Assembly (NCBI GenBank): GCA_000004695.1
Contig: CM000151.3
Span: forward strand, 4,320,001 to 4,384,000
Reading direction: 5' to 3'
From: Dictyostelium discoideum
Lineage: Eukaryota
Length of the DNA: 64,000 nucleotides
Below, in pieces: positions 5,935 through 24,320 of the stretch. Position 1 is the stretch's first letter; every line of letters begins with the position of its first letter. The position numbers and the translations under genes are program-made. Under the pieces are notes generated by a model. It had not been told where the DNA came from. It saw only the letters and a program-made list of their open reading frames with translations, and did no database searches.

Positions 5935-8900
5935 GTAATAATAATACTTTATGTGTATCTACAAGTGGTGGAAGTAGTCATCAAGATATTAATAAAATTG
6001 ATCCAAGACAACAACATTCAATTTTACATAAGATTGGATTTAGATTAGTAGATTTTGATTATACAAAACTACCATTAAAGAGATTAGGTAAATCAAATAA
6101 TCTCCTATTGACAGTTTATCTTTCGCCACATATACCATCACAAAGTAGTTTAGATGGTGATAAATATTATTTACCATCAGTATTATTAAAGAATTTCGTA
6201 TATGACCTTTGGGATACATCTTATTTGACAGAAAAAGTTAATAGAAAACCAGATGAAGATCCAGAATATGGAAGAGCATTGGAACAAATCGAATTACGTG
6301 AAAAGATACCATTGTTAGATTTACCATGGGGTGCAGGTAAACCATGGACATTAGTTGACCTCTATGAGGATTATGATGAAGAATTATTGGAACGTTGTTA
6401 TAGAGAAGTCATGGTACCAAGTGTGAAACATAGTGAAATTCCTTCACTTGGTAACGTTTTAAGGGCAATGTCTCCCGAGGGTGATGATTCATCCTATCTA
6501 CCAGATGTTCATGTCCTTTTAGCAGTACGTTGGCCAACTGATTTCCATAAGGATGGCAATTCATCATCGCCAATCATCGATGGTCTTTGTGTTTTCGAAT
6601 ATCATACCGAACAAAATTGTGGAATACTCACTCATTTAATTTTACAAAAAAAGAATAGAACATCATTGAATGATGGTTTGGATAGTTTATTAGTGGATAG
6701 TGCCGTAGATATCCTTGATACCAATGCAAGAGAACGTGGTAATTTGGCAGGTTGTAATGCAATTTTCATTCATATTAAAAATGCCCCAACTTCACCAGTT
6801 AGTCCAGATGTTGTTGATATTTGTCAACATCATATGGTATTATATAAAATGGGATTCAAACTTTTAGACTTTGATTTCTATATACCACCATTGGATTTTC
6901 ATTCAGCACCAAAGAAAATGATGTTAGGTTTATTCATTACACCATTGATCCCAAAATCAAATGAAAAAGGTGATCGTCCATTCATTCCATCAAATCTATT
7001 GAAATTATTTGTTGAACTTCAATGGAATAATGCTTTTGGTTCAGAACAAATTAAGAATTCACCAAATACCTACTTGGAATATCAACGTATGATTGAACAA
7101 ATAGAATTACGTGAACGTATTTCATTATCGGATTTACCATGGGATGCAGGTAAACCATGGACATTGGTTGATCTATGGGAAGATTATGATCAAGAGTTAT
7201 TGGAACGTCTATACAAAGAGATTATGATACCAAACTTTTCAAATAAACACGAATTGGAACCATTGGATAATTGGTTACAAGCATTTACTTCAGAGAATCG
7301 TGATGATCCAAACATTTCCGATCTTCATATACTATTGGCACTTAGATGGAGCGATAATAGTTCACAACCAATCATTGAGGGTGTTATCATCTTTGAATAT
7401 TTCTCTGCAAATAATTGTGGTCTATTAACTTATTTAATCGTTCAAAAAACATTTAAAGGTAAAGGTTTGGATAGAATCCTCGTGGAAACAGCAATTGAAA
7501 TCCTAAATCAAAATGCAAAGAGTCAAGGTTTCCTTCCAGGTTGTAATGCAATCTTTTTGGAGGTTTACAGTGGTGAAAAGGTAACTTTGAAACAAGATGT
7601 AGTCGATCCACGTATGAGACATTCCATCTATCATCAAATTGGATTTAGATTGATAGATTTCGAATATGTTGCACCACCATTAGCTTTGACTTATCCAAAG
7701 TTAAAACATTTCCTTCTCACAGTTTATCTTACCGAACATATTCCAAAGATGCCATTGGAGGAGGGCAAATATTATTTACCAAGTAGCGTTTTAAAGAATT
7801 TTATCACCGTCCTTTGGAAGAATGCAATTGCAACCAAGAAAATCATTAAACAACCACAAAGAGATTCAGATTATGTTAGAATGGTCGAACAGTTTGAGTA
7901 TCGTGAAAAAATACCATTGTTAGATTTACCATGGGGTGCAAGTAAACCATGGACATTGGTTGATCTTAGAGACGATTATGATGAGGATCTTATGGTACGT
8001 TTTTACAATGAGTTGATGTTACCAAATTTCCCAGTGAAAAATGAATTGGAACCATTATCAAATTTCATTAGTGCTCTCTCTGAAGAGAGAAGAGAATCAT
8101 TCAATCCACATTTATCAGAGGTTCATGTTTTATTGGCATTGAGATGGCCAACCGATTCATCCGATTTACAACCAACCATTGGTGCTGGTATTATTTTCGA
8201 ATATTTTTCAAATACCAATTGTGGTTTACTTTCCTATTTGGTGGTACATCGTTCTTCAAGAGGTCAAGGTTTGGCTGGTATTTTGGTTGAACGTGCAGTG
8301 GAACTATTGGATAAACATGCAAAAACTCGTGGTCAATTGGCTGGTTGTAACTGTATTTTCTTGGAAACCAATTCTGCTGAAAAAGTAACCGTACAACAAG
8401 ATGTTATGGATCCACGTATGAGACATACTATCTATTATAAAATGGGTTTCAGAATGATCGATTTCGAATATATTATGCCACCACTTTTTCAAGGTTTTGA
8501 AAAATTACGTGGTGTACTCTTATTGACAGTTTATTTAACTCCTCATATTCCCTATCAAGATGTCAATGGCAAGAAACAATACTATCTACCAAATGTTTTA
8601 TTAAAGAATTTCATCTCTTCACAATGGGAGAATGCATTCCGTAATTCACGTCTCTCTGTTAGACCAAGTCAAGATATCGATTTCACAATGTCATTGGATC
8701 AATTGGAGATTAGAGAACGTGTACCACTATTGGATTTACCATGGGGTGATGGTAAAGATTGGATGATAGTTGACCTTTGGGAAGATTATGATCAAGAGTT
8801 ATTGGATGCTTTCTATAAAAAGTATATGATCACTCAGTTTGGTACTTCCGATGAATTAGAACCATTAGAGAATTGGCATAAAGCTCTCTCAACCGAGGGT

Positions 8901-10064
8901 CGTGATGATCCTAATATTTGCGATCTTCATGTCCTATTAACATTGGGTTTGCCAGGTGAACATAAAGGTAAAGGTCATAAATATATCATTGGTGGTTTGG
9001 TTTTCGAATATTATCCAGAGACAAATACAGCATTGGTCACTTACTTGGTTGTAAATCAACGTTGGTCCGGTAAAGGTATTGGTACTGACTTAATTTTACG
9101 TACTCTCACAATTCTCGATCAAAATGCAAAACAAAAAGGTCATATAGCCGGTTGTAATGCAATTTTCTTGGAAGTTATGTTCTTACCACAATCGGGTGAA
9201 TCAGACTCTTCATTGAGTCATGTTTTCCTTTTCAATAAAGGTTTCCGTTTATTGGATTTCGAATATTATCAACCACCAACCTCTTTAAGAAATCCAAAAT
9301 CAAATAATGTTTGTTTAACCGTTCTATTGACTCCACGTATTCCAAAGCATGGTGTTGGTAGTGAAATTCAACCATTTGTACCATCTTCTTTGTTACGTTC
9401 ATTCATTACAACTCTATGGGAAGATGAATGTGGTTTAATTGGTTATAACTTTGAATCTGATCCATGTTACCTTAGAATGATGGAACAATTGGATGGTAAT
9501 GATTATTTCCATTGTTTAGATTTACCTTGGATTAAACATAGAATCGATCAAAATTCAATCAATCCAAATAATTCCACTCTACCACATATAAACTTTTCAA
9601 ATTCTTTTAATAATTTAAATATTAGTTATTCATCACCAAATCCTGTACATTTAAGAGATTTTAAAAATCAACAACAACAACAACAACAACAACAAGTACA
9701 ACAATTACAACAACAAGTACAAAAAGTACAACAATTGACAGCTGGTACTAATTTAGGTGGTAATAGTTTAAATTCAAGTGGTAGTATTTATAATAATAGC
9801 GGCGATAAAAAATCATCACTACCACCATTACCAAATCCAAATAACCTTAGTAATAATTATGATAGTGATCATCTTACAAAGAATAAAAATTTATTAAAAG
9901 TTTCAACACCAGATGGCAATAGTTCCTCTGCTCCTGGTTCACCAATTTTATCTCCTCAATCAATGAATTCAGTTTTCCCACCAAACGCTCCTTTATCACC
10001 TGCTCTTTATCCTTCAAATTTAAGTAATTCAACATTGGCCCAAAGAGTTACATTGGATAAATAA
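4545..10064 (+). CDS. Large protein of about 1767 aa built from five tandem GNAT-like (acetyltransferase-fold) repeats of about 215 aa each plus a degenerate sixth, with a poly-Asn insert and a Q/N/S-rich tail. Three exons.
   Basis: Exons (approximate): 4545..4579 (MSSTPNNNNNN, donor gtaagt); 4702..5557 (acceptor aatag; donor gtaagt after ...IIQKKFRNM); 5652..10064 (acceptor ttttag; stop taa). The track ORFs 4841..5674 and 6108..10064 are joined by intron 2. I checked the frame from 5652 to 6108 codon by codon and it has no stop. Each repeat carries the block YYLPS.LLKNF..LW....IELRE.IPLLDLPWGAGKPWTLVDL.EDYDEELLER.Y.E.M.P...ELEPL...A.S.E....P...DLH.LLALRW....QPII.G...FEYF...NCGLLTYL.VQK...GKGL...LVE.A.E.L..NAK..G.L.GCNAIFLE......V....DV.DPRMRH.IY...GFR.IDFEY. 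This matches GNAT motif A (R/Q-x-x-G-x-G/A, for example HRSSRGQGLAGILVE and NQRWSGKGIGTDLIL) plus a motif-B-like N..A..lY...GF. Repeat 1 is interrupted by a T/S/P-rich insertion of about 160 aa and a (AAT)31 poly-N tract. Intron 2 falls inside motif A. Confidence 0.7.
5838..5930 (+). repeat. Perfect (AAT)n microsatellite of about 31 units, in frame, encoding poly-Asn within the GNAT-repeat gene.
   Basis: Uninterrupted aataataat... run. It reads as Asn codons in the reconstructed gene frame. The ORF track translates another frame as poly-Ile. Confidence 0.9.
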
Positions 10065-10306: not shown

Positions 10307-10477
10307 ATGAAGGTTTCACTTTCTTTTCTTTTAACAATTTTAATTGTTATAATTACAATTAAAGTTAATTTATCTCAAGAAATTAAAATTAGTCCATTCT
10401 TTGCAAATAATTTAAAATTTGAACCAATCCCTGACTATATTGAATATGATTCAGAGTAAGTCCTCAATTTTTATTAC

Positions 10478-10519
<42 letters not shown>

Positions 10520-12238
10520 TTTTAATTTTAAATGTAAAAGTTAAGAAACTAACAAAACAATTAAAAATTTATATATAGTTCAGATGCAGGTGAAGCATTA
10601 TTCTTATCAAACTATTTAGATGACCACAAAACCGCAAAACAGAAATCTTGTGTTGATATTGGTGCACCTTTTCAATCATGTGATAAATTATTAGAGATTG
10701 ACTCTAACCTCAGAGATACAGAAGATTTCTTTACATTCACTGGTTTCATCACTGTAAATGAAACTTATAATAGTAATACTTTCTTTTGGTTTTTAGAATC
10801 TCAAAATGGTGATAAAAACTCACCCTTAGTTATCTTTTTACAAGGTGGTAAGTATTTTTATTTTTATTTTTATTTTTATTTTAAAAACAATTTAAAATGT
10901 ATATTAATATTATTTATTTATATTTATTTATATAAAAAAAAAAAAAATATAAAATAGGTCCAGGTGGTGCATCAACTTTTTCACTTTTTGTTGAAACAGG
11001 TCCATATGAACTCCTTGATAATTTCACTTTAGTACAAAGAGAAATTACATGGAATTCAGAATTTGCAATGTTATATATTGATAATCCAGTTGGTACTGGT
11101 TTTTCATTTACTGACTCTCAAGAGGGTTATTCAAATAATGAAGATGAAATTGCAACAAATTTATACACCTTTTTACAACAATTTTATAAACTTTATCCAG
11201 AATATTACACAAATGAATTATATATAACTGGTGAAGTAAGTACAAATCAAATATTTAACATTTTAATTCAATTTTAATACTAATTTTATAAAATAATAAT
11301 AAATAATAAATAATAAATAATAAATAATAAATAATAATTATTTAGAGTTATGCCGGAAAATACATTCCAGCATTTTCATATCACATTATCCAACAAAACC
11401 AAAACTCAAATAATCCAAATATTAATCTTAAAGGTATTGCAATTGGTGACGGTTTATGTGATCCAATTACCCAAGTAACTCAATATGCAAACCTTGCATT
11501 CTATACTGGTTTAGCTGATCTCCAACAACAAGAAGTTATGTTTGAATATCAAGATAAAATTGTTGAAGCAATTAATCAAGAACAATGGTCAGTTGCAAAC
11601 GATTTATTCACTGATTTAATTAATGGTCCACCAGATTATTTCCAAGTAAATATATAGTTTTTTTTATTTCCTATTCTTATATAAATGATTAATTAGTTTT
11701 TTTTTTTTCTTTTTTTTTTTTTTAAAATAAGAATATTACAGGTGAATCAGATTATTATGATATTCGTAAAACTGTTGAACCAACATATGGTGGTGATTTT
11801 ACAGCATTTTTAAATCAATCTTCAATTCGTGCAATGATTCATGTTGGTAATAATTATTTTCAAAATAATAATGATGTTTACATTCATTTAGAACAAGATA
11901 TTCCAAAATCAGTTAAACAATTATTCCCAACCATTTTAGATAATATTAAAGTTATTTTATACAATGGTCAATTTGATTTCATTGTTGGTCCATCTCTCAC
12001 AGAAACAATGATTCGTACTATTGAATGGGAAGGAATTCAACCATTCTTAGAATCACCAAAAATCATTTGGAAAATTCCATCAGATAATGTTGATGTAGCC
12101 GGTTTTGTTAGACAATGGAATAGTTTCACTCAAGTTGTTGTACGTCAAGCAGGTCATATGGTACCTTTGGATCAACCTGCACGTGCTTTTGATATGATAG
12201 ATAGATTTATTAACAATGAACCTTTTCCATCAGGTTAA
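10307..12238 (+). CDS. Serine carboxypeptidase (peptidase family S10) with a signal peptide. Five exons.
   Basis: Exons (approximate): 10307..10455, 10579..10847, 10958..11235, 11346..11645, 11732..12238. All donors are gtaagt or gtaaat and all acceptors are ag. The spliced protein is MKVSLSFLLTILIVIITIKVNLSQ...FFWFLESQNGDKNSPLVIFLQGGPGGASTFSLFVETGPYEL...LYIDNPVGTGFSF...LYITGESYAGKYIP...GIAIGDGLCDP...VVRQAGHMVPLDQPARAF...PFPSG. The oxyanion/GGPG block (QGGPGGAS, spliced across intron 2), the catalytic-Ser motif GESYAG (spliced across intron 3) and the catalytic-His motif AGHMVP are hallmark S10 motifs. Reading frames are consistent across all junctions. Confidence 0.85.
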
Positions 12239-12351: not shown

Positions 12352-13848
12352 TTATAATTCAACAAATCCAATATTTGATGGCTTTGATTCTATACCATTA
12401 TAACTTGTAACAACAATACTATATTTTCCATAAGGTATATTAAACATTTTTGTTATGAATTCTGAATTAATTGATCGTTTAATTTTATATCTTAACCATG
12501 TATTATCTGATCTACTGATATAAACAAAGTATTTGATTTTTTGATTACTTTTTTCACTTTTAAAGGAATTTGATTTAAAAGTGATTGATACATCCATATT
12601 AAAATAATATTGTTTTTCAATTGTACAATTGATAATTTGAGGTGGTAATAATTGTTCAAGTTGATTGGTAAATGATAAATTATAAGTTAAGGAGTAATTT
12701 CCATAATCAAGATTATGGTTTTCAACAATAATATAAACATGTTTACCATTTGCTGTCATTCTTAATTGCCTATTATCATTTGATCTATCAATAATAGTGG
12801 TTAAACTTTGACCATATCTAATATTACAACTTCTCATTGAACTATATTTATAATAATTATAAGCTTTTCTTGATTCTAATAAACATATTGAATAGGTGAA
12901 TGGCATAACTCTATTAGCTATTGGATTTATTGACATTGTAATTTCCGTATTACCCTTAACATCACAAGAATATTGATGATATTGATTAAAATTATTATTA
13001 TTAAAACCATTATCTTTTTTAAAATTACAATAATTATTACAAGGTGAATAATCATCATTTCTTAAAAATTCTAAATATGAGTCTAAAAAGTGTAATTGGT
13101 TTATTGATTTAATTTTTTCAATATTATTTTTCAAATAAATTGTATTGTTAATTGAATGTTTAAAAATTGTATTTGAAACGTATGGGTCTGTTATTCTAAT
13201 AGTATCATTATAATATGAATTTACATATCTACGGTAGGTAAATTTATTTATGTTTTGTTTAACATAATCTAAAAATTTATCATCACCAATTGCAGGTTGG
13301 CCAAATGTTACACATGTAATTGATTTTATATATTTTTCATTAAAACGTTGAATTGAGATATCTAAAGTTGCAAAAAATGCAATTACACCGCCAACTGAAT
13401 GACCAGTAAAATAGATATCATAGGGTTTCTCACATGAATCAATAATGCTATATAATTGAATATATAAATCATAATATTCACCTTGAAAACCATTACGAAC
13501 TTCACCACATCCTTTTGGATCAATATAACAATCAACTTTGAAATAATGGGCATTATCTTCGATATTAATTGAATTGTATTCTTTAAATGAAATTATTAAA
13601 TTATTGGTAATGGATGATTTATATGCTAAAATCTTAGAATTATCCAATACAACCTCCCATTCCAAACAATTGTTTTTATCACCTAAAGAAATAAATTGAT
13701 TTTGTTTAACTGCTAATGGATCATATATTAAATCTGAAAAGTATGCAAAAATATAATCTCCATTTTTACCAATTATTGAACTATTTGATCTTTTAAGATT
13801 TATTAATAAATTTATTATCAATATAAAAACTATTGTTTTAAAAAACAT
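12352..13848 (-). CDS. Secreted class-3 (fungal-type) lipase-like protein, paralogue 1 of 4, with a novel Cys-rich/beta-rich C-terminal domain of about 230 aa.
   Basis: Single-exon 498-aa ORF. Signal peptide MFFKTIVFILIINLLINL. Lipase_3 signatures: ...LIISFKEY..., CGEVRNGFQGEYYDLYIQLYSIIDSCEKPYDIYFTGHSVGGVIAFFATLD (nucleophile elbow GHSxG), ...FGQPAIGD... The C-terminal half has conserved Cys pairs (SPCNNYCNF...YSCDV...YSICL) and ends ...YSIVVTSYNGIESKPSNIGFVEL. It converges tail-to-tail on the carboxypeptidase gene with an intergenic gap of about 113 bp. Confidence 0.85.
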   Translation of the reverse strand: MFFKTIVFILIINLLINLKRSNSSIIGKNGDYIFAYFSDLIYDPLAVKQNQFISLGDKNNCLEWEVVLDNSKILAYKSSITNNLIISFKEYNSINIEDNAHYFKVDCYIDPKGCGEVRNGFQGEYYDLYIQLYSIIDSCEKPYDIYFTGHSVGGVIAFFATLDISIQRFNEKYIKSITCVTFGQPAIGDDKFLDYVKQNINKFTYRRYVNSYYNDTIRITDPYVSNTIFKHSINNTIYLKNNIEKIKSINQLHFLDSYLEFLRNDDYSPCNNYCNFKKDNGFNNNNFNQYHQYSCDVKGNTEITMSINPIANRVMPFTYSICLLESRKAYNYYKYSSMRSCNIRYGQSLTTIIDRSNDNRQLRMTANGKHVYIIVENHNLDYGNYSLTYNLSFTNQLEQLLPPQIINCTIEKQYYFNMDVSITFKSNSFKSEKSNQKIKYFVYISRSDNTWLRYKIKRSINSEFITKMFNIPYGKYSIVVTSYNGIESKPSNIGFVEL

Positions 13849-14241
13849 TGTTTATTGACAATTAAAATAACACTTGGGTTTTTTTTTAATTTTATATTTT
13901 GTGTGGTTGTGTGTGTTTATATATTAATTAAAAATAAAAATTAAATAAAATTCTCTGTAAATATCCCTATCAATATTAATTATACAAAATTTTAAATCAG
14001 AAAATCTAAATTTAGATCTTAATTACATTTCTTTTTTAATTAAAAATAATAATTAATGAAAATAAAAAAATAAAAATTTCATCATTTAATTTATTAATAT
14101 TAAGTAATCTTTTAAGTGGTGTTTTTAGAAAATTTAATTAAAAGATTTTTAGTAATTTACTAAATTATCTATTATTTTATTTATTTAAAAATTAATGATT
14201 CAGATTAGTTGTTAAATCATTTTTTTCTTTATAATTATAAT

Positions 14242-15810
14242 TTATTTCAGAGTATTTATAAATGCAATATTGGAGGGTGAAGATTGGATATCATTATATT
14301 CTGAAAAAACAACTATACTATATGCTCCTTTTGGGATATCATCTATAGTTTTTGAAAAGTAATTATTATTTTGGTGTGGTCGAATAATTGTCTCTTTATA
14401 TTTTTTCCAGTTTTGCCCAATATTACTAATGAATATATTATATATTGTATTATTAAAATTGTTGTTATTATTATTATGATCTAAATCATTGATACTAAAA
14501 TTAACTTGTAATTTAATAAGATCGTTTTTTATTTCTAAAATATCAGCTGTTAAATTTGTTGGTGGATTTGGAGTTTGATATGGGCTCTTTATTGAAATAT
14601 TATAAGAAAATGAGGATGTCCCTAAAATTGAGTTATGGTTTTCAACTACAACAATAATTTCATTTAAATTTTTAATTCTTTTTGAAACTGATCTAAAATG
14701 TTCTGTCTTATCTACCATTGTTATTGGTTGTTTATAATCTTTATAGTAATTTAAATTACAACTACTAAATAATGTAAAATCATAGTGTTTAAATTGATTC
14801 CTTGATGTAAATAAACATACAGAGTATTTATCAGGTAGAATACCTTTTGGATTAAATTCACCATTGAAAATACATTCATTTTTAACCATACAATGATATT
14901 CTTTAAATTTTGAAAATTTTGCATTCTTTTCAACAAATTTACAATTAGTATTACATTGTGAATAATTTGGATTAAATGTATTTAATAGGTAAAGATCTGA
15001 TGAATGTAAACCCAATGGAAAATTGGGACAACTGTGTTTTTTACAATTTAAAACAATTATTGATTCATCTGCGACCTTTGGATGATAAACATTAAATATT
15101 GACATTATTTCAACAACAGGATCTTCATGATACTTTTTAAAATCAGATGAACGATGTTTATGATTATTAATATTAACGTATCTTCTATAATTTATTTTTT
15201 TAATTGATGATAAAAACAATTTATTAAATTGTTCATCTCCTACTGCAGGCTGACCAAATGTTATACAATTAATAGATTCAATGTTTTTTAAATCATTTTG
15301 ATAAGAATAATATACTGAAGCTAATAATGCAACAGCACCACCAGCCGAATGACCAGTAAAATAAATATCATATGGTTGGTCTAATGATTTTATTATTGAT
15401 AACATTGTATTTTGATTAAAATAAAATTGATCTTGAAAACCAAAATGAATTTTACCACATTCAATATTCCATGGTTTTAATAAAAAACAAGAAATTAATT
15501 TTAAATCAATATCAGATGCAAAATCTTTAAAATAATGAGTTCCTTGAATTGAAATAACCAAGTTATTCGTATATTTTGATTTAAAAATCATCATTTTATT
15601 TTCATTTACAATTATTTCCCATTCTTCACATTCACCATTAATTTTTATTAATTCAAATTTTGAAAATTCTTTATTATTTGTTTTATATACTAAATTTGAA
15701 AAGTAAGCAAATATATGATCTCCATCTTTATTTATTTTTGAAGATAAAATTAAATTTATAAAAATTAATTTAAATAATATAATTATTAAAAATTTTATTT
15801 TAAAAAACAT
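14242..15810 (-). CDS. Secreted class-3 lipase-like protein, paralogue 2 of 4.
   Basis: 522-aa single-exon ORF. Signal peptide; VISIQGTHYF (RGT-like block); PYDIYFTGHSAGGAVALLASVYYS (GHSxG); FGQPAVGDEQF. The Cys-rich C-terminal domain ends YSIVVFSEYNDIQSSPSNIAFINTLK. Collinear with paralogues 1, 3 and 4. Confidence 0.85.
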   Translation of the reverse strand: MFFKIKFLIIILFKLIFINLILSSKINKDGDHIFAYFSNLVYKTNNKEFSKFELIKINGECEEWEIIVNENKMMIFKSKYTNNLVISIQGTHYFKDFASDIDLKLISCFLLKPWNIECGKIHFGFQDQFYFNQNTMLSIIKSLDQPYDIYFTGHSAGGAVALLASVYYSYQNDLKNIESINCITFGQPAVGDEQFNKLFLSSIKKINYRRYVNINNHKHRSSDFKKYHEDPVVEIMSIFNVYHPKVADESIIVLNCKKHSCPNFPLGLHSSDLYLLNTFNPNYSQCNTNCKFVEKNAKFSKFKEYHCMVKNECIFNGEFNPKGILPDKYSVCLFTSRNQFKHYDFTLFSSCNLNYYKDYKQPITMVDKTEHFRSVSKRIKNLNEIIVVVENHNSILGTSSFSYNISIKSPYQTPNPPTNLTADILEIKNDLIKLQVNFSINDLDHNNNNNNFNNTIYNIFISNIGQNWKKYKETIIRPHQNNNYFSKTIDDIPKGAYSIVVFSEYNDIQSSPSNIAFINTLK

Positions 15811-15942
15811 TTTTAATTTAAATAATTATATAATTTTTTTTTTTTTATTTTTTTTAAATAATTATTTTTATTTTTTTTTTTTTTCTGAACATTTAAAAAT
15901 AATTATTTTTATTCCACGTTTATAAAAAAAAAAGTCTTTTTT

Positions 15943-15976
<34 letters not shown>

Positions 15977-16030
15977 TTAAAAAATAAATAAAAATAAAAT
16001 AACAGATTTAATAATTATTTATTATAAATT

Positions 16031-17566
16031 TCAAATTATTTTATTTTTATTATCTAATCCATTAACAAAACAATAATTAGAAGTTTTGGATTCTATTCCA
16101 TTATCACTTGTAGATACAATACTATAAAGACCATCTTTTTTAAGATTTTTTATAATTTCATTTAATTCTATTTTTGATAATGGTTCAACAAATTCATATT
16201 TAATCCAATCTTTTCCAATTTCACTTAAATAAATATTATATTTCATTGTTGGTTGAATTAATGAAATAGTATTATTTGATTTGAATGAAACTGAAATATC
16301 CATTGAATTTTCATTTGTTGAAATTATTTTACATGTTAAATTATTTGGTGGTTGTGGTACTTGAATTGTACTAATGAATGAAATATTGAAAGCAAGAGTT
16401 GAAGTTGAAAAGAATAAATTATGATTCTCTACAATTATAAATAAATCAGAACCAGAAACAGTCATTTCAAACTCCATTGCATTTGTTGTTTTATCAATTA
16501 AAATATTAGATTTACCACCACAAATATTATTTTGACTATATTCATATTTATTAAAATCATCTTTATTTGTAAAAATACAAACTGAATATTTATCAGTGAA
16601 AAAACCAGAACCTGGATAAAAGTGACCTTTAATTGTCGATTCTGAAGATGATGGACAATGATAAACTTGTTTTTTTGTAATTTTTGGATTTTGGAATAAA
16701 AAATTACAATTTGAATTACATTTTGAATATTTATCATTATAAAGTTTATCTTTATAAAGATCCAAGAAATGTAAACCTAAAGAGTAATTTGGACAATCAT
16801 TATTACAATCTAATAGAATTGGACTATTATTTGGATGTGGTACCGATAAGAAATTCACTACTGGATCTTCAATGGTTTTATTATTATTTAATTGTGCAAT
16901 ATTATTAATATTAATATAACGACGATACTGAAATTTATCTAATTTTAAATTTGCAAATTTATTAAATTCAAAATCACCAATTGAAGGTTGTCCAAAAGTT
17001 ATACAATTAATAGAATGAATTATATTGAGATCTTTATGATTTGTAACATAATCCAATGATGCTAATAATGCAGTTGAACCACCTAATGAATGACCAGTGA
17101 AATAAATATCATATTGTTGATCTAATTTTTTAATTGTTGATAAAAGTAATAAACTAATTTCATTATATTTCTCTTGAAATCCATTACGAATCTTTCCACA
17201 ACCGCCACCTCTACCACTACCACCACCACCCCATAAATCATTATTTACTATTAAATTACAATTTGAATATTTGATATCTAAATCAGCTTTTATATCTTCA
17301 ATACTGCTTGTACCTTTGAATGAAACCACAACAGTATTACTAAATTTTGATTTCCAAATATCCATTCCACTACTATCAATTATAATTTCCCATTCCATAC
17401 ATTTCTCATTCAATTGTAAATATTCATTTCCTGTTATCGGTCCATAAACTGTATCTGAAAAATATGCAAATAAAAAATCACCTTCTTTTTTAATTATTGA
17501 ACAATTTATAATTGCAAGTATAATTAAATTTATAAATAATAATAAAGTTATTTTAAAATTTAACAT
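16031..17566 (-). CDS. Secreted class-3 lipase-like protein, paralogue 3 of 4, with a Gly-rich insertion before the catalytic region.
   Basis: 511-aa single-exon ORF. Signal peptide; VVVSFKGTSSIEDIKADLDIK; an insertion WGGGGSGRGGGCGKIRNGF; QYDIYFTGHSLGGSTALLASLDY (GHSxG); FGQPSIGDFEF. The C-terminal domain ends LYSIVSTSDNGIESKTSNYCFVNG. Confidence 0.85.
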   Translation of the reverse strand: MLNFKITLLLFINLIILAIINCSIIKKEGDFLFAYFSDTVYGPITGNEYLQLNEKCMEWEIIIDSSGMDIWKSKFSNTVVVSFKGTSSIEDIKADLDIKYSNCNLIVNNDLWGGGGSGRGGGCGKIRNGFQEKYNEISLLLLSTIKKLDQQYDIYFTGHSLGGSTALLASLDYVTNHKDLNIIHSINCITFGQPSIGDFEFNKFANLKLDKFQYRRYININNIAQLNNNKTIEDPVVNFLSVPHPNNSPILLDCNNDCPNYSLGLHFLDLYKDKLYNDKYSKCNSNCNFLFQNPKITKKQVYHCPSSSESTIKGHFYPGSGFFTDKYSVCIFTNKDDFNKYEYSQNNICGGKSNILIDKTTNAMEFEMTVSGSDLFIIVENHNLFFSTSTLAFNISFISTIQVPQPPNNLTCKIISTNENSMDISVSFKSNNTISLIQPTMKYNIYLSEIGKDWIKYEFVEPLSKIELNEIIKNLKKDGLYSIVSTSDNGIESKTSNYCFVNGLDNKNKII

Positions 17567-17790
17567 TTTAAAAAAAACAATTATTAATAGAATATTATTA
17601 AAAATTATAATTGGTAATTAATAAAAAATATTTTATTCTATTTGAAAAAAAAAAAAAAAAAAAAAAAGAAACATTTTTTTCAATACGAATTATTCTTTTT
17701 TTGTTTTATGTAAATAGGTACAATTGTAATTTCTAAATTTTTCTTTTTTATTTTAAATTTTTAATATATTAATATGATAGCTTACATGAA

Positions 17791-17828
<38 letters not shown>

Positions 17829-18068
17829 AATATGGTAATTACTACTTATTTATCATTTATTTAATCTCTATGAATCTAATAAATTTTAAAATAATTACTA
17901 TATCAAAATTTTACACACATCCACAAAAAAAAAAAAAAAAAAAAAAATGAAAAATGAAAAACAGAAATAAAAAAATAAAATAAAATTTTATACAAATAGG
18001 GTTTTGTTACTAAAAAAAAAAAAAATTAAAAAAAAAAAAAATAAAAATAAATTTTAAAAAAATTTAAG

Positions 18069-18250
18069 GGAGTTGTATAGGGAAATAAAAAAAAAAGTAA
18101 AAAAAAAAGAGGTAACTACTGACCAGTCCTCATAGAATCACTTTTTACCACTTTAATTCCGAAATTATTATGTCTGGATGGACCATTTTTTTTCACTTTT
18201 TACCACTTTAATGGTGAAATTTTTTTTATCCGACCAACCTTATCATCCTT
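18069..18250. other. Island of about 180 bp that is noticeably less AT-rich than its surroundings, with an internal imperfect direct repeat (cactttttaccactttaat[t/g]) in the 1.7-kb gap between lipase paralogues 3 and 4. Possible degenerate transposon or terminal-repeat fragment, or a small ncRNA.
   Basis: The sequence gggagttgtatagggaaat...ggtaactactgaccagtcctcatagaatcactttttaccactttaattccgaaattattatgtctggatggaccattttttttcactttttaccactttaatggtgaaatttttttt atccgaccaaccttatcatcc stands out against flanking AT-only DNA. No ORF. No tRNA or snRNA consensus that I can fit. Confidence 0.25.
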
Positions 18251-18659
18251 TTATTTTTAATTTTCTTTTTTTAATTTTACCATAAAAATATGTTCACATT
18301 TAATTGGAACATATGTATATTTTCCATTTTCCTTAATCAGGTATAATTTTATCAATATCTTGAGTACCAATAGTTTTGAGTCATATTGATTCCTTTTTTT
18401 TTTTATTTTTTTTTTTTAATTATTTTCTTTTTTTTTTTAATTTTTTATTTTTTTATATTTTTGAAATTTTACCCATTATTATATTATATTTAATTATTAT
18501 AATTTATTAATAACTTTATCCTATTTTATTTTATTTTATTTTATTTTACTTTTGTTATTTTTAAAATTTATTATATATTACAATATAATTATATATAAAT
18601 AAAATTTTTTTTATTTTTTTTGGACAAAAAAAAAAAAAAATAAAAAATGTTTTATTAAT

Positions 18660-18778
18660 TTTTAATTAAAAAAAAAAAAAAAAGTGCTACTAAATTTTTA
18701 ATTAATTAAAAAAAAAAGTGCTATTAAATTTTTAATTAATAAAAAAAAAAAGTGCTACTAAATTTTTTATTAATTTAA
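18660..18778. repeat. Three tandem copies of a unit of about 33 bp: (a)n-agtgcta[c/t]taaattttt[a/t]attaat.
   Basis: aaaaaaaaaagtgctactaaatttttaattaatt / aaaaaaaaagtgctattaaatttttaattaat / aaaaaaaaaaagtgctactaaattttttattaat, seen directly in the intergenic DNA upstream of lipase paralogue 3. Confidence 0.7.
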
Positions 18779-19160
18779 AAATAAAAAAAATACTCAAAAC
18801 CTTAAATCTAAATCTCACAAATAAATTGTTTAATTAATCAAAAAAAAATAATAATAATAATAAACCTCATACAATAATATTAGTTTGCCAGCAAAAAATT
18901 GTAAAATTAAAAAATAATAAAAATAACAAAATATAAGAGTTTTTTTCTATTTCAAATACAAAAAATATTCTTTAAAATTTTAATTTATTCACTATTTTTC
19001 CAATTATTTTATTAATATATAAAAAAACTAATTTCTTATTTTCATGAGTGGATAGAATAAAAAAATTTAAACTAAATAGATATTAATCAATAGAATATAA
19101 GAATTAAATCTTGATTATTTTATTTGTTTTTTTTAATTTTATTTTCCCAAACATTAATTG

Positions 19161-19192
<32 letters not shown>

Positions 19193-19291
19193 GTTTGTGG
19201 TGGGGGTGATAATAAAAATAATAAATCTATTTTTTTTTTTTCAGATTAAATAATTTTTTTTAATTTTTTATATTTATATATTTAAAATAAT

Positions 19292-20830
19292 TTAAATTAA
19301 TGTTGAATTACCAAAAATGTAAGCAAAATTAGAAGCATGTGATTCAGCTCCATTGTCAGCAGTAACAACAATACTATAAATTCCATTCATCGGAATGTTT
19401 AAAAATTTTGAAACAAATTTAGTTGTTGCAGATTCAATGAATTCAAACTTTGACCATTCTTTACCAATTTCACTTAAATAAACCCTATATATAATTAAAT
19501 TATATAAACTATAAATGTGTTGTGGTAATTGGTGATAGTTAAAAGAGACCATAATACCAATTGTATCATTTTTTAAAGATGACACAGTACAAGATAAATT
19601 TGTTGGTGGTGAAGGTGCAGTAATTGAATTTGTAAATGTGATATTATAAGAGAATGACGAAGTTGCGAATAAATTATTACGATTTTCAACAACCACATAT
19701 AACTCTTTGCCTTGTAATACCTTTTTTTCAAACATAGTTCTATTTGATGTTTTTTTAATTATAATTGAAGTTGCATTTGAATTTGTACCTGATTTCAAAT
19801 TACAATCAGTTGATTGTTTATATTCATATTGATCGAAATCTTGAGCTGAAGTGAATAGACACACAGAATATTTATCAGGCATGATACCTTGTGGATTGAA
19901 TGATCCCTTGATTAAAGACTCCTTATTTATTGGACATTTGTAGGACTGATATTTATAAATATTTGCATTGGATTCTTCAAATTTACAATTTGAACTACAT
20001 TCCGAATAATGTTGATTAAAAACATTACCCAAATATAAATCCATGAAATGTAAACCCAGTGGTACCATTGGACACCTGGTTTTTAAGCAGTCCAACATGA
20101 TGGCATTGGTTGGGTGTGAGAATATTGAATTTGGGATGGGATCTTCTTGAGGTGATAGACCGAGTATGGCCGTTTTACTATTATAATTTACATAACGACG
20201 GTATTGGAATCTTTGGGAGTAAAACATCAAACTGTTGGAAAACTGCTCATCGCCCACAGCCGGTTGACCAAAAGTAACACAGTGGATTGATTTAATGTAT
20301 TTTTGTTTTTGTCTTTGATTCACTGTATAATCATAGGCGGCAATCAATGCCAATGCACCGCCTAGTGAATGACCGGTGAAATAGATATCATATGGTTGAT
20401 CTAGTGATTTAATAATTGATAAGAGGATATCATAAGTTTCGTAATACTCTTGTTGAAATCCATAATGAAGTTTACCACATCCACTTGTAATATTACATGT
20501 TGTTGGTACAATTTTAATATCTGTAATAATATCTGAAAATCCTTGTGTACCTCTAAAAGAAACTATTAAATTATTACTAAATTTCGATTGAAATATCATA
20601 ATTCTACTATGATCTAATATTATTTTCCACTCCATACATTCTCCATTTAATGAAATGTATTTATATTGTTCACTATTGGTATTTGTTGATTTTGGCATAT
20701 AAACAATATCTGATAATAATCCAAATAAATAATCACCATCTTCTTTTATAATTGTTCCATTATTAAAATCTATTAGATAATTTAAAATTAATAAAAATAT
20801 AAATAAAATAATTTTAATTTTAAAAATCAT
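19292..20830 (-). CDS. Secreted class-3 lipase-like protein, paralogue 4 of 4.
   Basis: 512-aa single-exon ORF. Signal peptide; IVSFRGTQGFSDIITDIKIV (canonical Lipase_3 RGT block); PYDIYFTGHSLGGALALIAAYDY; FGQPAVGDEQF. The C-terminal domain ends YSIVVTADNGAESHASNFAYIFGNSTLI. Confidence 0.85.
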   Translation of the reverse strand: MIFKIKIILFIFLLILNYLIDFNNGTIIKEDGDYLFGLLSDIVYMPKSTNTNSEQYKYISLNGECMEWKIILDHSRIMIFQSKFSNNLIVSFRGTQGFSDIITDIKIVPTTCNITSGCGKLHYGFQQEYYETYDILLSIIKSLDQPYDIYFTGHSLGGALALIAAYDYTVNQRQKQKYIKSIHCVTFGQPAVGDEQFSNSLMFYSQRFQYRRYVNYNSKTAILGLSPQEDPIPNSIFSHPTNAIMLDCLKTRCPMVPLGLHFMDLYLGNVFNQHYSECSSNCKFEESNANIYKYQSYKCPINKESLIKGSFNPQGIMPDKYSVCLFTSAQDFDQYEYKQSTDCNLKSGTNSNATSIIIKKTSNRTMFEKKVLQGKELYVVVENRNNLFATSSFSYNITFTNSITAPSPPTNLSCTVSSLKNDTIGIMVSFNYHQLPQHIYSLYNLIIYRVYLSEIGKEWSKFEFIESATTKFVSKFLNIPMNGIYSIVVTADNGAESHASNFAYIFGNSTLI

Positions 20831-21854
20831 GATTATTGTAATATTTTTTTTTTAGGTTAATTAATCTATAGATTTTTAAAAATAAAAAATAATAGAATTA
20901 CAATTTATAAAATAAAAAAAAAAAAAAAATTGTTTAAATAAAAAATAAAAATAATTAAAAAAAAAAAAAAAAAAAAAATGATTTAAATTAATAAAATAGT
21001 AGTGTGAGTGTGAATGTTTGAAGATTTTAAGTGGATGTAATTATTTTTTTTATAAAATAATAAGCCCAATTAATGAGATATATATAGAAATAAAAAACTG
21101 AAAATAATTAAACAAAAACAAAAATCAAGATATGTGACATATCAAATTAAAAAATAAATTAAATTTTTTGTTTTACAATTATATATGATAGATATACTAC
21201 TGGTTTTTTGTTTAAAAAAATAAAAAAATAAAAAAAAATAAAAAAAAATAAAAAAGAAAATAAAAAAAAAATAAGAAAAATAAAACTTACCACTATGTGG
21301 GTTAAATAATTTGTGTAAAATAAATTTTTGATAATAAGTTTGTAATTTGAATTATTTTAACTATACCTCTCCAATTGGTAGTTTGGAAATCATTAAATAA
21401 TTATATTATTTTTGTTTTATTTATTTTTTTTTTTATAATTGAACACCGCAAAAAATAATTTGACAACATTTTCAAAAATTAAAAATAACAAGAAATAACA
21501 CTAACTCAATTTATTAATAAAGAATCAATAATAATATTAATACCACCAATTTAATTAAAAAATAAAAAAAAAATAAAAAAAAATAAAAAAAAAATAAAAA
21601 TAAGATTATTATTATAAATGACAAATTAAATTTATTTTAATGATCATAATATTATTTCTTCTTCCTTCAATCTTCTCGATTAATCAAAAAAAAAAAAAAA
21701 AAAAAAAAATTAAAAAAATAAAAATAAATCCATCCAATGTCATACTATAAAAAAAAGAATAAAAATAATTTTAGTAAAATCTTAAAAAATATAAACAACT
21801 TTTTTAATTTTTCAAGAAAATATTTAAATTTGAAGGAAAGTTTTAAACATTCAA

Positions 21855-22075
<221 letters not shown>

Positions 22076-22184
22076 ATTTTTATTATCTAGATTTAATTTT
22101 TTTTTTTTTAATTTTTTTTTTTTATTTTTTATTTTTTTATTTTTATTTCCAATTCTTACAAATAATAAATATGATCAATGATTA

Positions 22185-24320
<2,136 letters not shown>

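Follow-up and report, generated by a model that had tools for sequence, protein, structure and literature searches.

In Dictyostelium discoideum, four lipase-like genes stand in tandem beside a gene for an S10 serine carboxypeptidase, and this arrangement raises two questions: what is the long C-terminal region that follows the lipase domain in each of the four proteins, and do the five genes act together? The genes lie in a 64,000-nucleotide stretch of chromosome 2 (contig CM000151.3, positions 4,320,001 to 4,384,000; hereafter the window, in whose numbering all positions are given). In an original prediction, made from the DNA letters and their open reading frames (ORFs), the C-terminal region was taken as a single uncharacterised module and the five genes as an island of secreted hydrolases that may be co-regulated, for example for feeding or development. 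The reading that we favour, with a probability of roughly 0.6, is that the lipases, here called lip1 to lip4, are three-domain proteins of the secretory pathway with a role in development, whose tail of a jelly-roll and a fibronectin type III (FN3) domain would serve in targeting, and that the carboxypeptidase (CPVL) is an unrelated neighbour.

The lipase ORFs

The four ORFs are all on the minus strand, intron-less and uninterrupted, and their coordinates agree exactly with those first proposed. They are lip1 (DDB_G0274509; 12352..13848; 498 amino acids (aa), an exact match to XP_644096), lip2 (DDB_G0274881; 14242..15810; 522 aa), lip3 (DDB_G0274883; 16031..17566; 511 aa) and lip4 (DDB_G0274675; 19292..20830; 512 aa), the last being the paralogue used for the AlphaFold2 model described below. 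Three of the four lipases agree from end to end (100% identity) with annotated proteins of D. discoideum AX4, and the fourth matches newer D. discoideum annotations. At NCBI they are named "hypothetical protein", and in UniRef "Fungal lipase-type domain-containing protein". The AX4 gene model of DDB_G0274881 (XP_644097, 450 aa) is N-terminally truncated: it begins at Met73 of the continuous 522-aa ORF of lip2 and so misses 72 N-terminal residues, signal sequence included, that are kept in all paralogues and orthologues. The newer D. discoideum annotations use 522 aa, and the orthologous ORFs of D. dimigraforme and D. firmibasis are full length.

The pairwise identity of the four proteins is 33-44% (E-values 1e-70 to 1e-136, far beyond chance), close to the 35-45% that had been estimated by eye, and no fifth lipase copy, intact or degenerate, was detected by tblastn anywhere in the window, the lip3-lip4 gap included. 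The sequence motifs on which the family was first recognised are all present, with minor deviations in single paralogues. GHS[VAL]GG and FGQP[AS][IV]GD occur in all four lipases, as does Y-x-C; C-x3-C-x-F is present, with C-S in lip4 where the others read C-N; YS[IV]C[LI]F is present, with a final L in lip1; and YSIV[VS]T..NG.ES..SN is present, with a deviation in lip2.

Lipase domain and secretory features

The Pfam profile Lipase_3 (PF01764), with a gathering cut-off of 22 bits, matches all four proteins, at 60.2 (lip1), 74.2, 82.7 and 85.0 bits, and the predicted lipase core is thereby borne out. In lip4, this alpha/beta-hydrolase domain spans aa ~28-270 (20021..20749, minus strand) by Pfam, PDB sequence matches and Foldseek, and in lip1 it spans aa ~25-262, after the signal peptide. 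The nucleophile Ser155 of lip4, within GHSLGG, is encoded at positions 20366-20368, and the catalytic His261 is just inside the domain limit. Ser155, Asp230 and His261 are invariant in an alignment of 21 sequences, which comprises the four paralogues, dictyostelid relatives and one Planoprotostelium protein. Because this triad is invariant, lip1-lip4 are probably active serine hydrolases.

The closest solved relatives in a PDB sequence search are the Rhizomucor miehei lipases (E-value 9e-15), with which the nucleophile Ser and its flanking segments align. The full-length AlphaFold2 model of lip4, with a predicted local distance difference test score (pLDDT) of 81.2 and a predicted template-modelling score (pTM) of 0.78, matches the fungal class-3 lipases 6qpp, 3tgl, 3ngm and 1tib in Foldseek at E-values of 1e-10 to 6e-9, and the target-normalised template-modelling (TM) scores against solved class-3 lipases are 0.45-0.58. 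Like the fungal enzymes (Rhizomucor miehei, Thermomyces lanuginosus, Rhizopus), the Dictyostelium proteins have a signal sequence, an alpha/beta-hydrolase core, a GHSxGG elbow and a Ser-Asp-His triad; a segment aligns with their lid helix as well, and the identity in the Foldseek structural alignment is 26%. On the other hand, the stretch from the YRRYVN strand to the catalytic Asp is about 14 aa longer in the Dictyostelium lipases, which also have a Cys-bounded loop after the lid. The fungal enzymes consist of a single domain of ~270 aa, some with an N-terminal propeptide, whereas the Dictyostelium proteins add ~240 aa at the C-terminus.

Each lipase has one N-terminal hydrophobic stretch, predicted as a helix of about 20 residues, and no further hydrophobic segment. 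There are 11-14 Cys residues and 5-8 N-glycosylation sequons per protein, and none of the four ends in KDEL. The N-terminal stretch, the Cys residues and the sequons fit with entry into the secretory pathway, and from these sequence features we infer that lip1-lip4 take this route.

The C-terminal region: a jelly-roll followed by FN3

According to the structure models, the C-terminal region of about 230 aa is two independently folding beta domains and not one module. In the full-length model of lip4, separate beta domains at residues ~272-405 and 408-508 follow the lipase core. The middle domain (aa 271-405; 19616..20020, minus strand) is a Cys-containing jelly-roll, and when it is modelled alone (~135 residues) it again forms an eight-strand beta-sandwich, with a pLDDT of 85.5 and a pTM of 0.81. 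The terminal FN3 domain (aa 406-508; 19307..19615, minus strand) has seven strands. Transferred from the lip4 model to lip1 through the alignment, the limits are aa 263-400 for the jelly-roll (12649-13062) and aa 401-498 for FN3 (12355-12648). The jelly-roll and FN3 lie at 14569-14976 and 14245-14568 in lip2 and at 16355-16741 and 16034-16354 in lip3, all on the minus strand.

The middle domain holds the conserved motifs C-x3-C, [YF]SVC[LI]F and Y-x-Y-x(5-6)-C, together with a motif of the [IV][IV]xENHN type, which reads VVVENRN in lip4 and in which the E, the N and the last N are invariant. It may be speculated that this invariant Glu/Asn cluster is a candidate ligand- or metal-binding site. 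The middle domain has no consistent Pfam match, and its sole PDB sequence match, EssC at an E-value of 0.19, was judged to be chance. Foldseek against solved structures supports the jelly-roll assignment weakly (E-values of 5e-4 or higher, TM-scores of at most 0.58). Among the folds that it resembles are GOLD domains (p24/TMED, SEC14L2/3/4), to which its sequence identity is 3-12%; the Pfam profiles GOLD_2 and EMP24_GP25L gave no match at E <= 10 in 14 family members, and, unlike GOLD, the middle domain has its own Cys pattern and the ENHN motif. Jelly-rolls of viral capsids and of CUB, PPC and Eph ligand-binding domains score about equal to GOLD, so that the resemblance is one of fold only. 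Neither by profile nor by best structural match does the middle domain belong to the PPC, collagen-binding or subtilisin C-terminal jelly-roll families.

An exhaustive profile search with the middle domain found 18 clusters among 1.84 billion representative proteins. Eight of them are proteins of the family alignment or dictyostelid representatives from the first search, all with Lipase_3. In nine of the ten newly found relatives Lipase_3 stands immediately before the domain, and the remaining one, a fragment of 314 aa, comprises the jelly-roll and FN3 only; hence the middle domain directly follows Lipase_3 in every relative whose upstream sequence is present. It occurs in dictyostelids of all major groups, in Physarum and in Planoprotostelium; the jakobid Andalucia (3e-6) and the breviate Pygsuia (1e-4) match more weakly. 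The ENHN, SVC and Y-x-Y-x(5-6)-C motifs are retained in the most distant members, ENHN as far as Physarum, Planoprotostelium, Andalucia and Pygsuia. These results show that the three-domain architecture is older than Dictyostelia, being shared with Physarum and Planoprotostelium and, at lower match strength, with the jakobid and the breviate. The middle domain is best regarded as a jelly-roll family without a Pfam entry, which occurs specifically in Lipase_3 proteins of a few protist lineages; no description of it, or of the conserved architecture, was found in Pfam, the PDB or the searchable literature.

Three other products of the search were set aside. The only bacterial match (P0148) is spurious, a short repeated segment alone being matched, and two fusions, of a lipase with WDR11 (P0138, Synstelium) and of a lipase with Kelch and RING (P0142), are likely merged gene models. 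Adjacent copies of the lipase family also occur in Synstelium polycarpum (P0138 and P0139, genes 7218 and 7217).

The last ~100 aa are a divergent fibronectin type III domain. The segment starts with P-x-P-P-x-N-L, contains a conserved Trp and ends in Y-S-I-V-V-T..N..ES..SN; the seven modelled strands lie between residues 410 and 506 of lip4, and the conserved residues are P409, W459, Y485/S486, S497 and S500. The family profile matches the FN3 domains of the prolactin receptor, Dscam, PTPRD and contactin at E-values of 7e-4 to 7e-3, and in Foldseek the model tail matches the tandem FN3 ectodomains of the EPO, growth-hormone and IL-4 receptors at 2e-6 to 4.5e-6. The aligned domain exceeds the Pfam fn3 (PF00041) cut-off of 25 bits in Planoprotostelium (38.3), Physarum (37.3) and Andalucia (32.0), and two orthologues are already named "Fibronectin type-III domain-containing protein" in UniRef. 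No D. discoideum copy reaches this cut-off (one of 13 family members has an E-value of 0.012), which is why the domain was not obvious earlier. Of the single uncharacterised module that had been proposed, the terminal part is therefore a known domain, for the last ~100 aa only, and the middle part alone stands as one without a counterpart in Pfam and PDB sequence searches.

Beta-sandwich modules that follow a catalytic domain are known from other secreted enzymes, and the Dictyostelium tail is analogous to those of the subtilisins Tk-SP and KP-43, to the PPC and collagen-binding domains of collagenases, and to the carbohydrate-binding modules and FN3 domains of bacterial glycoside hydrolases. 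None of these accessory modules has a sequence relationship to the tail. In pancreatic lipase, the C-terminal beta-sandwich targeting module is PLAT; it is not among the listed structural matches of the tail.

Evolution of the array

The order CDC73 - lip4 - lip3 - lip2 - lip1 is identical in D. discoideum, D. firmibasis, D. citrinum and D. dimigraforme. In the neighbour-joining tree, the lipases of these species form four orthogroups. Each of them has one member from every species and 100% bootstrap support, and all lie in a group-4 clade (95%) without Polysphondylium and Synstelium. At the locus examined in D. purpureum there is only one gene of the family; its genomic surroundings are unrelated, and its placement with the lip4 group is weak (56%). 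The tree and the gene order show that the four-fold duplication arose within group-4 Dictyostelium.

All 16 ORFs (four lipases in four species) are intact. Between D. discoideum and the three other species, the overall ratio of non-synonymous to synonymous substitution rates (dN/dS) is 0.11-0.29; per domain it ranges over 0.08-0.45 and stays below 0.5 in each of the three domains, the lipase domain having the lowest value in three of the four paralogues (0.08-0.16). Purifying dN/dS in every domain implies that all four copies, tails included, are maintained by selection. The expectation of old tandem duplications kept as a cluster thus agrees with synteny over four species, with the orthogroups of the phylogeny and with dN/dS. 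The lipases nevertheless evolve fast: they are 67-80% identical to their D. firmibasis counterparts, compared with 95% for the neighbouring gene with GNAT repeats.

Two observations concern lip4. It has the highest synonymous rate (dS) and the lowest dN/dS among the four paralogues, and positions 20100-20399, within its coding sequence, have a G+C content of 0.39 over 300 bp, about 0.15 higher than the other lipase coding sequence (~0.2-0.27).

The Gly-rich insertion that had been noticed in the third paralogue is real and is encoded by a GGT-rich microsatellite (17195..17230, minus strand; aa 113-124 of lip3). The inserted residues, GGGGSGRGGGCG, are in a loop between two conserved Cys residues, right after the segment that aligns with the lid of the Rhizomucor lipase. 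In the family alignment, the orthologues of lip3 are without this insertion. The lip3 proteins of different D. discoideum strains are 507 or 511 aa long, and this difference may come from length variation of the microsatellite.

The carboxypeptidase gene and its linkage to the lipases

The CPVL gene (DDB_G0274511; 10307..12238, plus strand) encodes 500 aa in five exons (10307-10455, 10579-10847, 10958-11235, 11346-11645 and 11732-12238). The reconstructed protein agrees exactly with XP_644095 ("peptidase S10 family protein") and Q869Q8 ("Probable serine carboxypeptidase CPVL"), and it matches Pfam Peptidase_S10 at 337.9 bits over profile positions 6-420 of 420; the serine motif GESYAG lies across the junction of exons 3 and 4, and the catalytic His motif AGHMVP is in exon 5. 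The gene converges on lip1, with exactly 113 bp to the lip1 stop codon, as had been proposed.

In D. discoideum, D. citrinum and D. dimigraforme, CPVL separates lip1 from the GNAT gene. In D. firmibasis, the lip1 orthologue and the GNAT gene are direct convergent neighbours, 91 bp apart (locus L001, 13369-13460), tblastn with all five S10 exons found no S10 sequence in the 21.5-kb lipase locus, and the CPVL orthologue (RB653_010354, >90% identical) is on a different contig. The CPVL-lipase linkage is consequently dispensable. CPVL is also far more conserved, all species falling into one 90% cluster, compared with 67-86% identity for the lipases. The displacement of CPVL has the form of a single-gene relocation or insertion within an otherwise collinear block.

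Expression of the five genes

For lip3, values were taken from Kin et al. 2018 (PMC6198379, supplement 5), which tabulates the time course of Parikh et al. 2010 and cell-type values in transcripts per million. Over 0, 4, 8, 12, 16, 20 and 24 h, lip3 rises through 0.06, 0.25, 1.1, 2.9, 5.8, 25.4 and 44.9, and by cell type it reaches 7.3 in stalk, 1.7 in spore, 0.4 in cup and 0 in vegetative cells (PMC6198379). Three lipases are in the differential-expression lists of Rosengarten et al. 2015 (sheet filter_UP of supplement 7, PMC4403905): lip4 under UP_Hr12_gradual, lip1 under UP_Hr18_rapid as well as UP_Hr20_gradual, and lip3 under both UP_Hr22_gradual and UP_Hr24_gradual. CPVL, on the other hand, is listed only among the genes that fall on starvation, its first two listed occurrences being in parts 27-28 of that file, past the start of the suspension_DOWN sheet at part 22 (PMC4403905); it is absent from the cell-type lists of PMC6198379. 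The four lipases are absent from the supplementary files of the bacterial-response RNA-seq study PMC7078664.

Based on these data, lip1, lip3 and lip4 are induced in development, each at its own time, and CPVL has the pattern of a growth-phase gene. The original prediction of an island that may be co-regulated does not hold: in D. firmibasis one member is on another contig, and in the published lists CPVL and the lipases follow opposite trends, with the three lipases rising at different times (~12 h, 18-20 h and 22-24 h), so that no common regulation is seen. Of the two roles that it had named, feeding is disfavoured for the lipases, as lip3 is at 0 in vegetative cells, and development is favoured, as lip1, lip3 and lip4 are in the UP lists.

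Proposed function and alternatives

In the reading that we favour, lip1-lip4 would enter the secretory pathway and be exported or delivered to a lumen, where, judging from their sequences, they would act as ester hydrolases on lipids, on triacylglycerol and/or phospholipid. By analogy with other accessory modules, the tail of jelly-roll and FN3 would be a non-catalytic targeting or binding module, which might tether the enzyme to a surface, for example a membrane, extracellular matrix, stalk tube or spore surface. The paralogues would have diverged in timing rather than in chemistry, lip4 being induced by ~12 h, lip1 at ~18-20 h and lip3 at ~22-24 h. The process served would be lipid remodelling or breakdown in multicellular development and fruiting-body formation, not the digestion of bacterial prey, and CPVL would be an unrelated growth-phase gene that is next door by chance.

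A precedent for Lipase_3 activity in a heterotrophic protist is protein 145138 of the thraustochytrid Aurantiochytrium, a Lipase_3 lipase/phospholipase A1 that is reported to be secreted and to hydrolyse triacylglycerol and phosphatidylcholine (PMC6841712). It represents a different lineage-specific Lipase_3 family with a nutritional and antimicrobial role, whereas the Dictyostelium genes are developmental.

Several points weigh against this reading. The signal peptide of lip1-lip4 is called from hydrophobicity alone, and a type II signal-anchor membrane topology is also compatible with the sequences; the binding role suggested for the tail comes by analogy. The column assignments in PMC4403905 were made by counting tab-separated columns and were checked against the descending ids in each column, and lip4 is also listed in a second sheet of the same supplement (part 15 of the file). 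lip2 is in none of the lists of PMC4403905 or PMC6198379. At the slug stage, lip3 is at 2.2 in prespore and 0.12 in prestalk cells (PMC6198379), which implies that its stalk enrichment is limited to terminal cells. The life-cycle proteome study PMC12821622 has none of the four lipases in its supplements, and their four DDB_G ids and UniProt ids are absent from the main text of searchable papers.

A more far-reaching version is possible, although we would not expect it to prove correct: the middle domain may be an undescribed, ancient accessory domain of eukaryotic lipases, with members in Amoebozoa and weaker ones in a breviate and a jakobid, whose Glu/Asn site binds a metal, a glycan or a lipid head-group, with the paralogues docked on developmental surfaces. 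If so, the jelly-roll and FN3 would dock each paralogue on the slime sheath, the stalk tube or the spore coat, and the array would be a timed series of matrix-tethered lipases that shape or defend the fruiting body, for example through antimicrobial lysolipids.

A rather unlikely alternative takes up the signal-anchor topology. The lipases would then be type II signal-anchored luminal enzymes that degrade internal membranes (vacuoles or autolysosomes) in the autophagic, vacuolising death of stalk cells, in the manner of Atg15, the fungal form of which is another Lipase_3 protein. The single predicted N-terminal hydrophobic helix of ~20 residues would suit such a topology, and lip3 is switched on at culmination, with its highest terminal-cell value in the stalk. 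However, before culmination the pattern is reversed, with more lip3 in prespore than in prestalk cells of the slug; the tail, the many Cys residues and the N-glycosylation sites are just as compatible with a soluble protein, extracellular or luminal; and Atg15 is named in none of the best 120 homology matches, most of which are nameless.

That the lipases make up, with the S10 carboxypeptidase, a co-regulated digestive island whose secreted or lysosomal hydrolases serve feeding on bacteria is quite improbable. An N-terminal signal-like sequence and N-glycosylation sequons are found in all five proteins, and the five-gene arrangement is common to D. discoideum, D. citrinum and D. dimigraforme; but lip3 is silent in vegetative cells, no lipase is in the supplements of PMC7078664, and CPVL appears in DOWN lists where lip1, lip3 and lip4 appear in developmental UP lists. 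The D. firmibasis locus, which has no S10 sequence, and the different rates at which CPVL and the lipases evolve speak against the island as well.

Lipase-like proteins can be catalytically inert, as EDS1 and PAD4 of plants exemplify, and these two are among the weaker PDB matches, but inert scaffolds whose FN3 and jelly-roll, modules typical of adhesion or recognition, mediate cell-cell or cell-matrix adhesion in development, when the genes are indeed expressed, are very improbable given that GHSxGG and Ser/Asp/His are invariant in the 21 sequences from Dictyostelia to Planoprotostelium, that in three of the four paralogues the lipase domain is the most constrained, and that the best structural matches are active fungal lipases.

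Significance

The genes had been annotated before, their Lipase_3 domain is in public databases and FN3 is flagged for some orthologues. Nevertheless, ever since publication of the D. discoideum genome lip1-lip4 have been annotated as "hypothetical protein", and no study of them was found in the searchable literature; keyword searches for Dictyostelium class-3 lipases and for lipase with FN3 and jelly-roll returned nothing relevant. Of practical use are the definition of the jelly-roll domain, absent from Pfam and confined to protist Lipase_3 proteins, the recognition of the terminal FN3, the correction of the truncated AX4 model of DDB_G0274881, and an indication that the paralogues, with their staggered timing, function in development rather than in digestion. 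The finding is a modest one, a lineage-restricted variant of a familiar design in which a catalytic domain of the secretory pathway is followed by beta-sandwich accessory modules; it opens no new category of biology and would not surprise a specialist, but the middle domain is worth a Pfam entry. As the array covers ~8.5 kb, all four genes of this genetically tractable organism could be taken out by a single deletion.

Neighbouring genes and other features of the window

The window has a G+C content of about 20%, with intergenic runs of ~10-14%. The gap between lip3 and lip4 (17567-19291; 1.7 kb) has a very low G+C content with a small bump (0.22) at 18000-18299; no ORF, lipase remnant or transfer RNA (tRNA) gene was found in it, and no tRNA genes were found in the 9-24 kb part of the window. 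In D. citrinum the corresponding gap measures ~0.8 kb, and in D. dimigraforme 3.7 kb.

Upstream of CPVL, positions 6108-10064 (plus strand) hold a 1318-aa ORF with several internal repeats of ~270 aa that have a GNAT acetyltransferase-like core (Pfam Acetyltransf_1, 51 bits) and with a poly-Q, low-complexity tail. It is the gene that is 95% identical to D. firmibasis; gene models elsewhere are ~1700 aa long, so the ORF in the window is probably only part of the gene. On the other side, the array is flanked by CDC73 (parafibromin) in all four species. Positions 22358-22678 (minus strand) are a CDC73 exon with a Pfam CDC73_C score of 106 bits, and 23173-23838 (minus strand) is a Q-rich ORF without a Pfam match, which is assigned to CDC73 by its position and by models in other species that have CDC73_N plus CDC73_C. 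Finally, long ATT/TTA/TAT microsatellites at 21737-22181 and 22819-22950 give rise to artefactual poly-Ile, poly-Leu and poly-Tyr ORFs.

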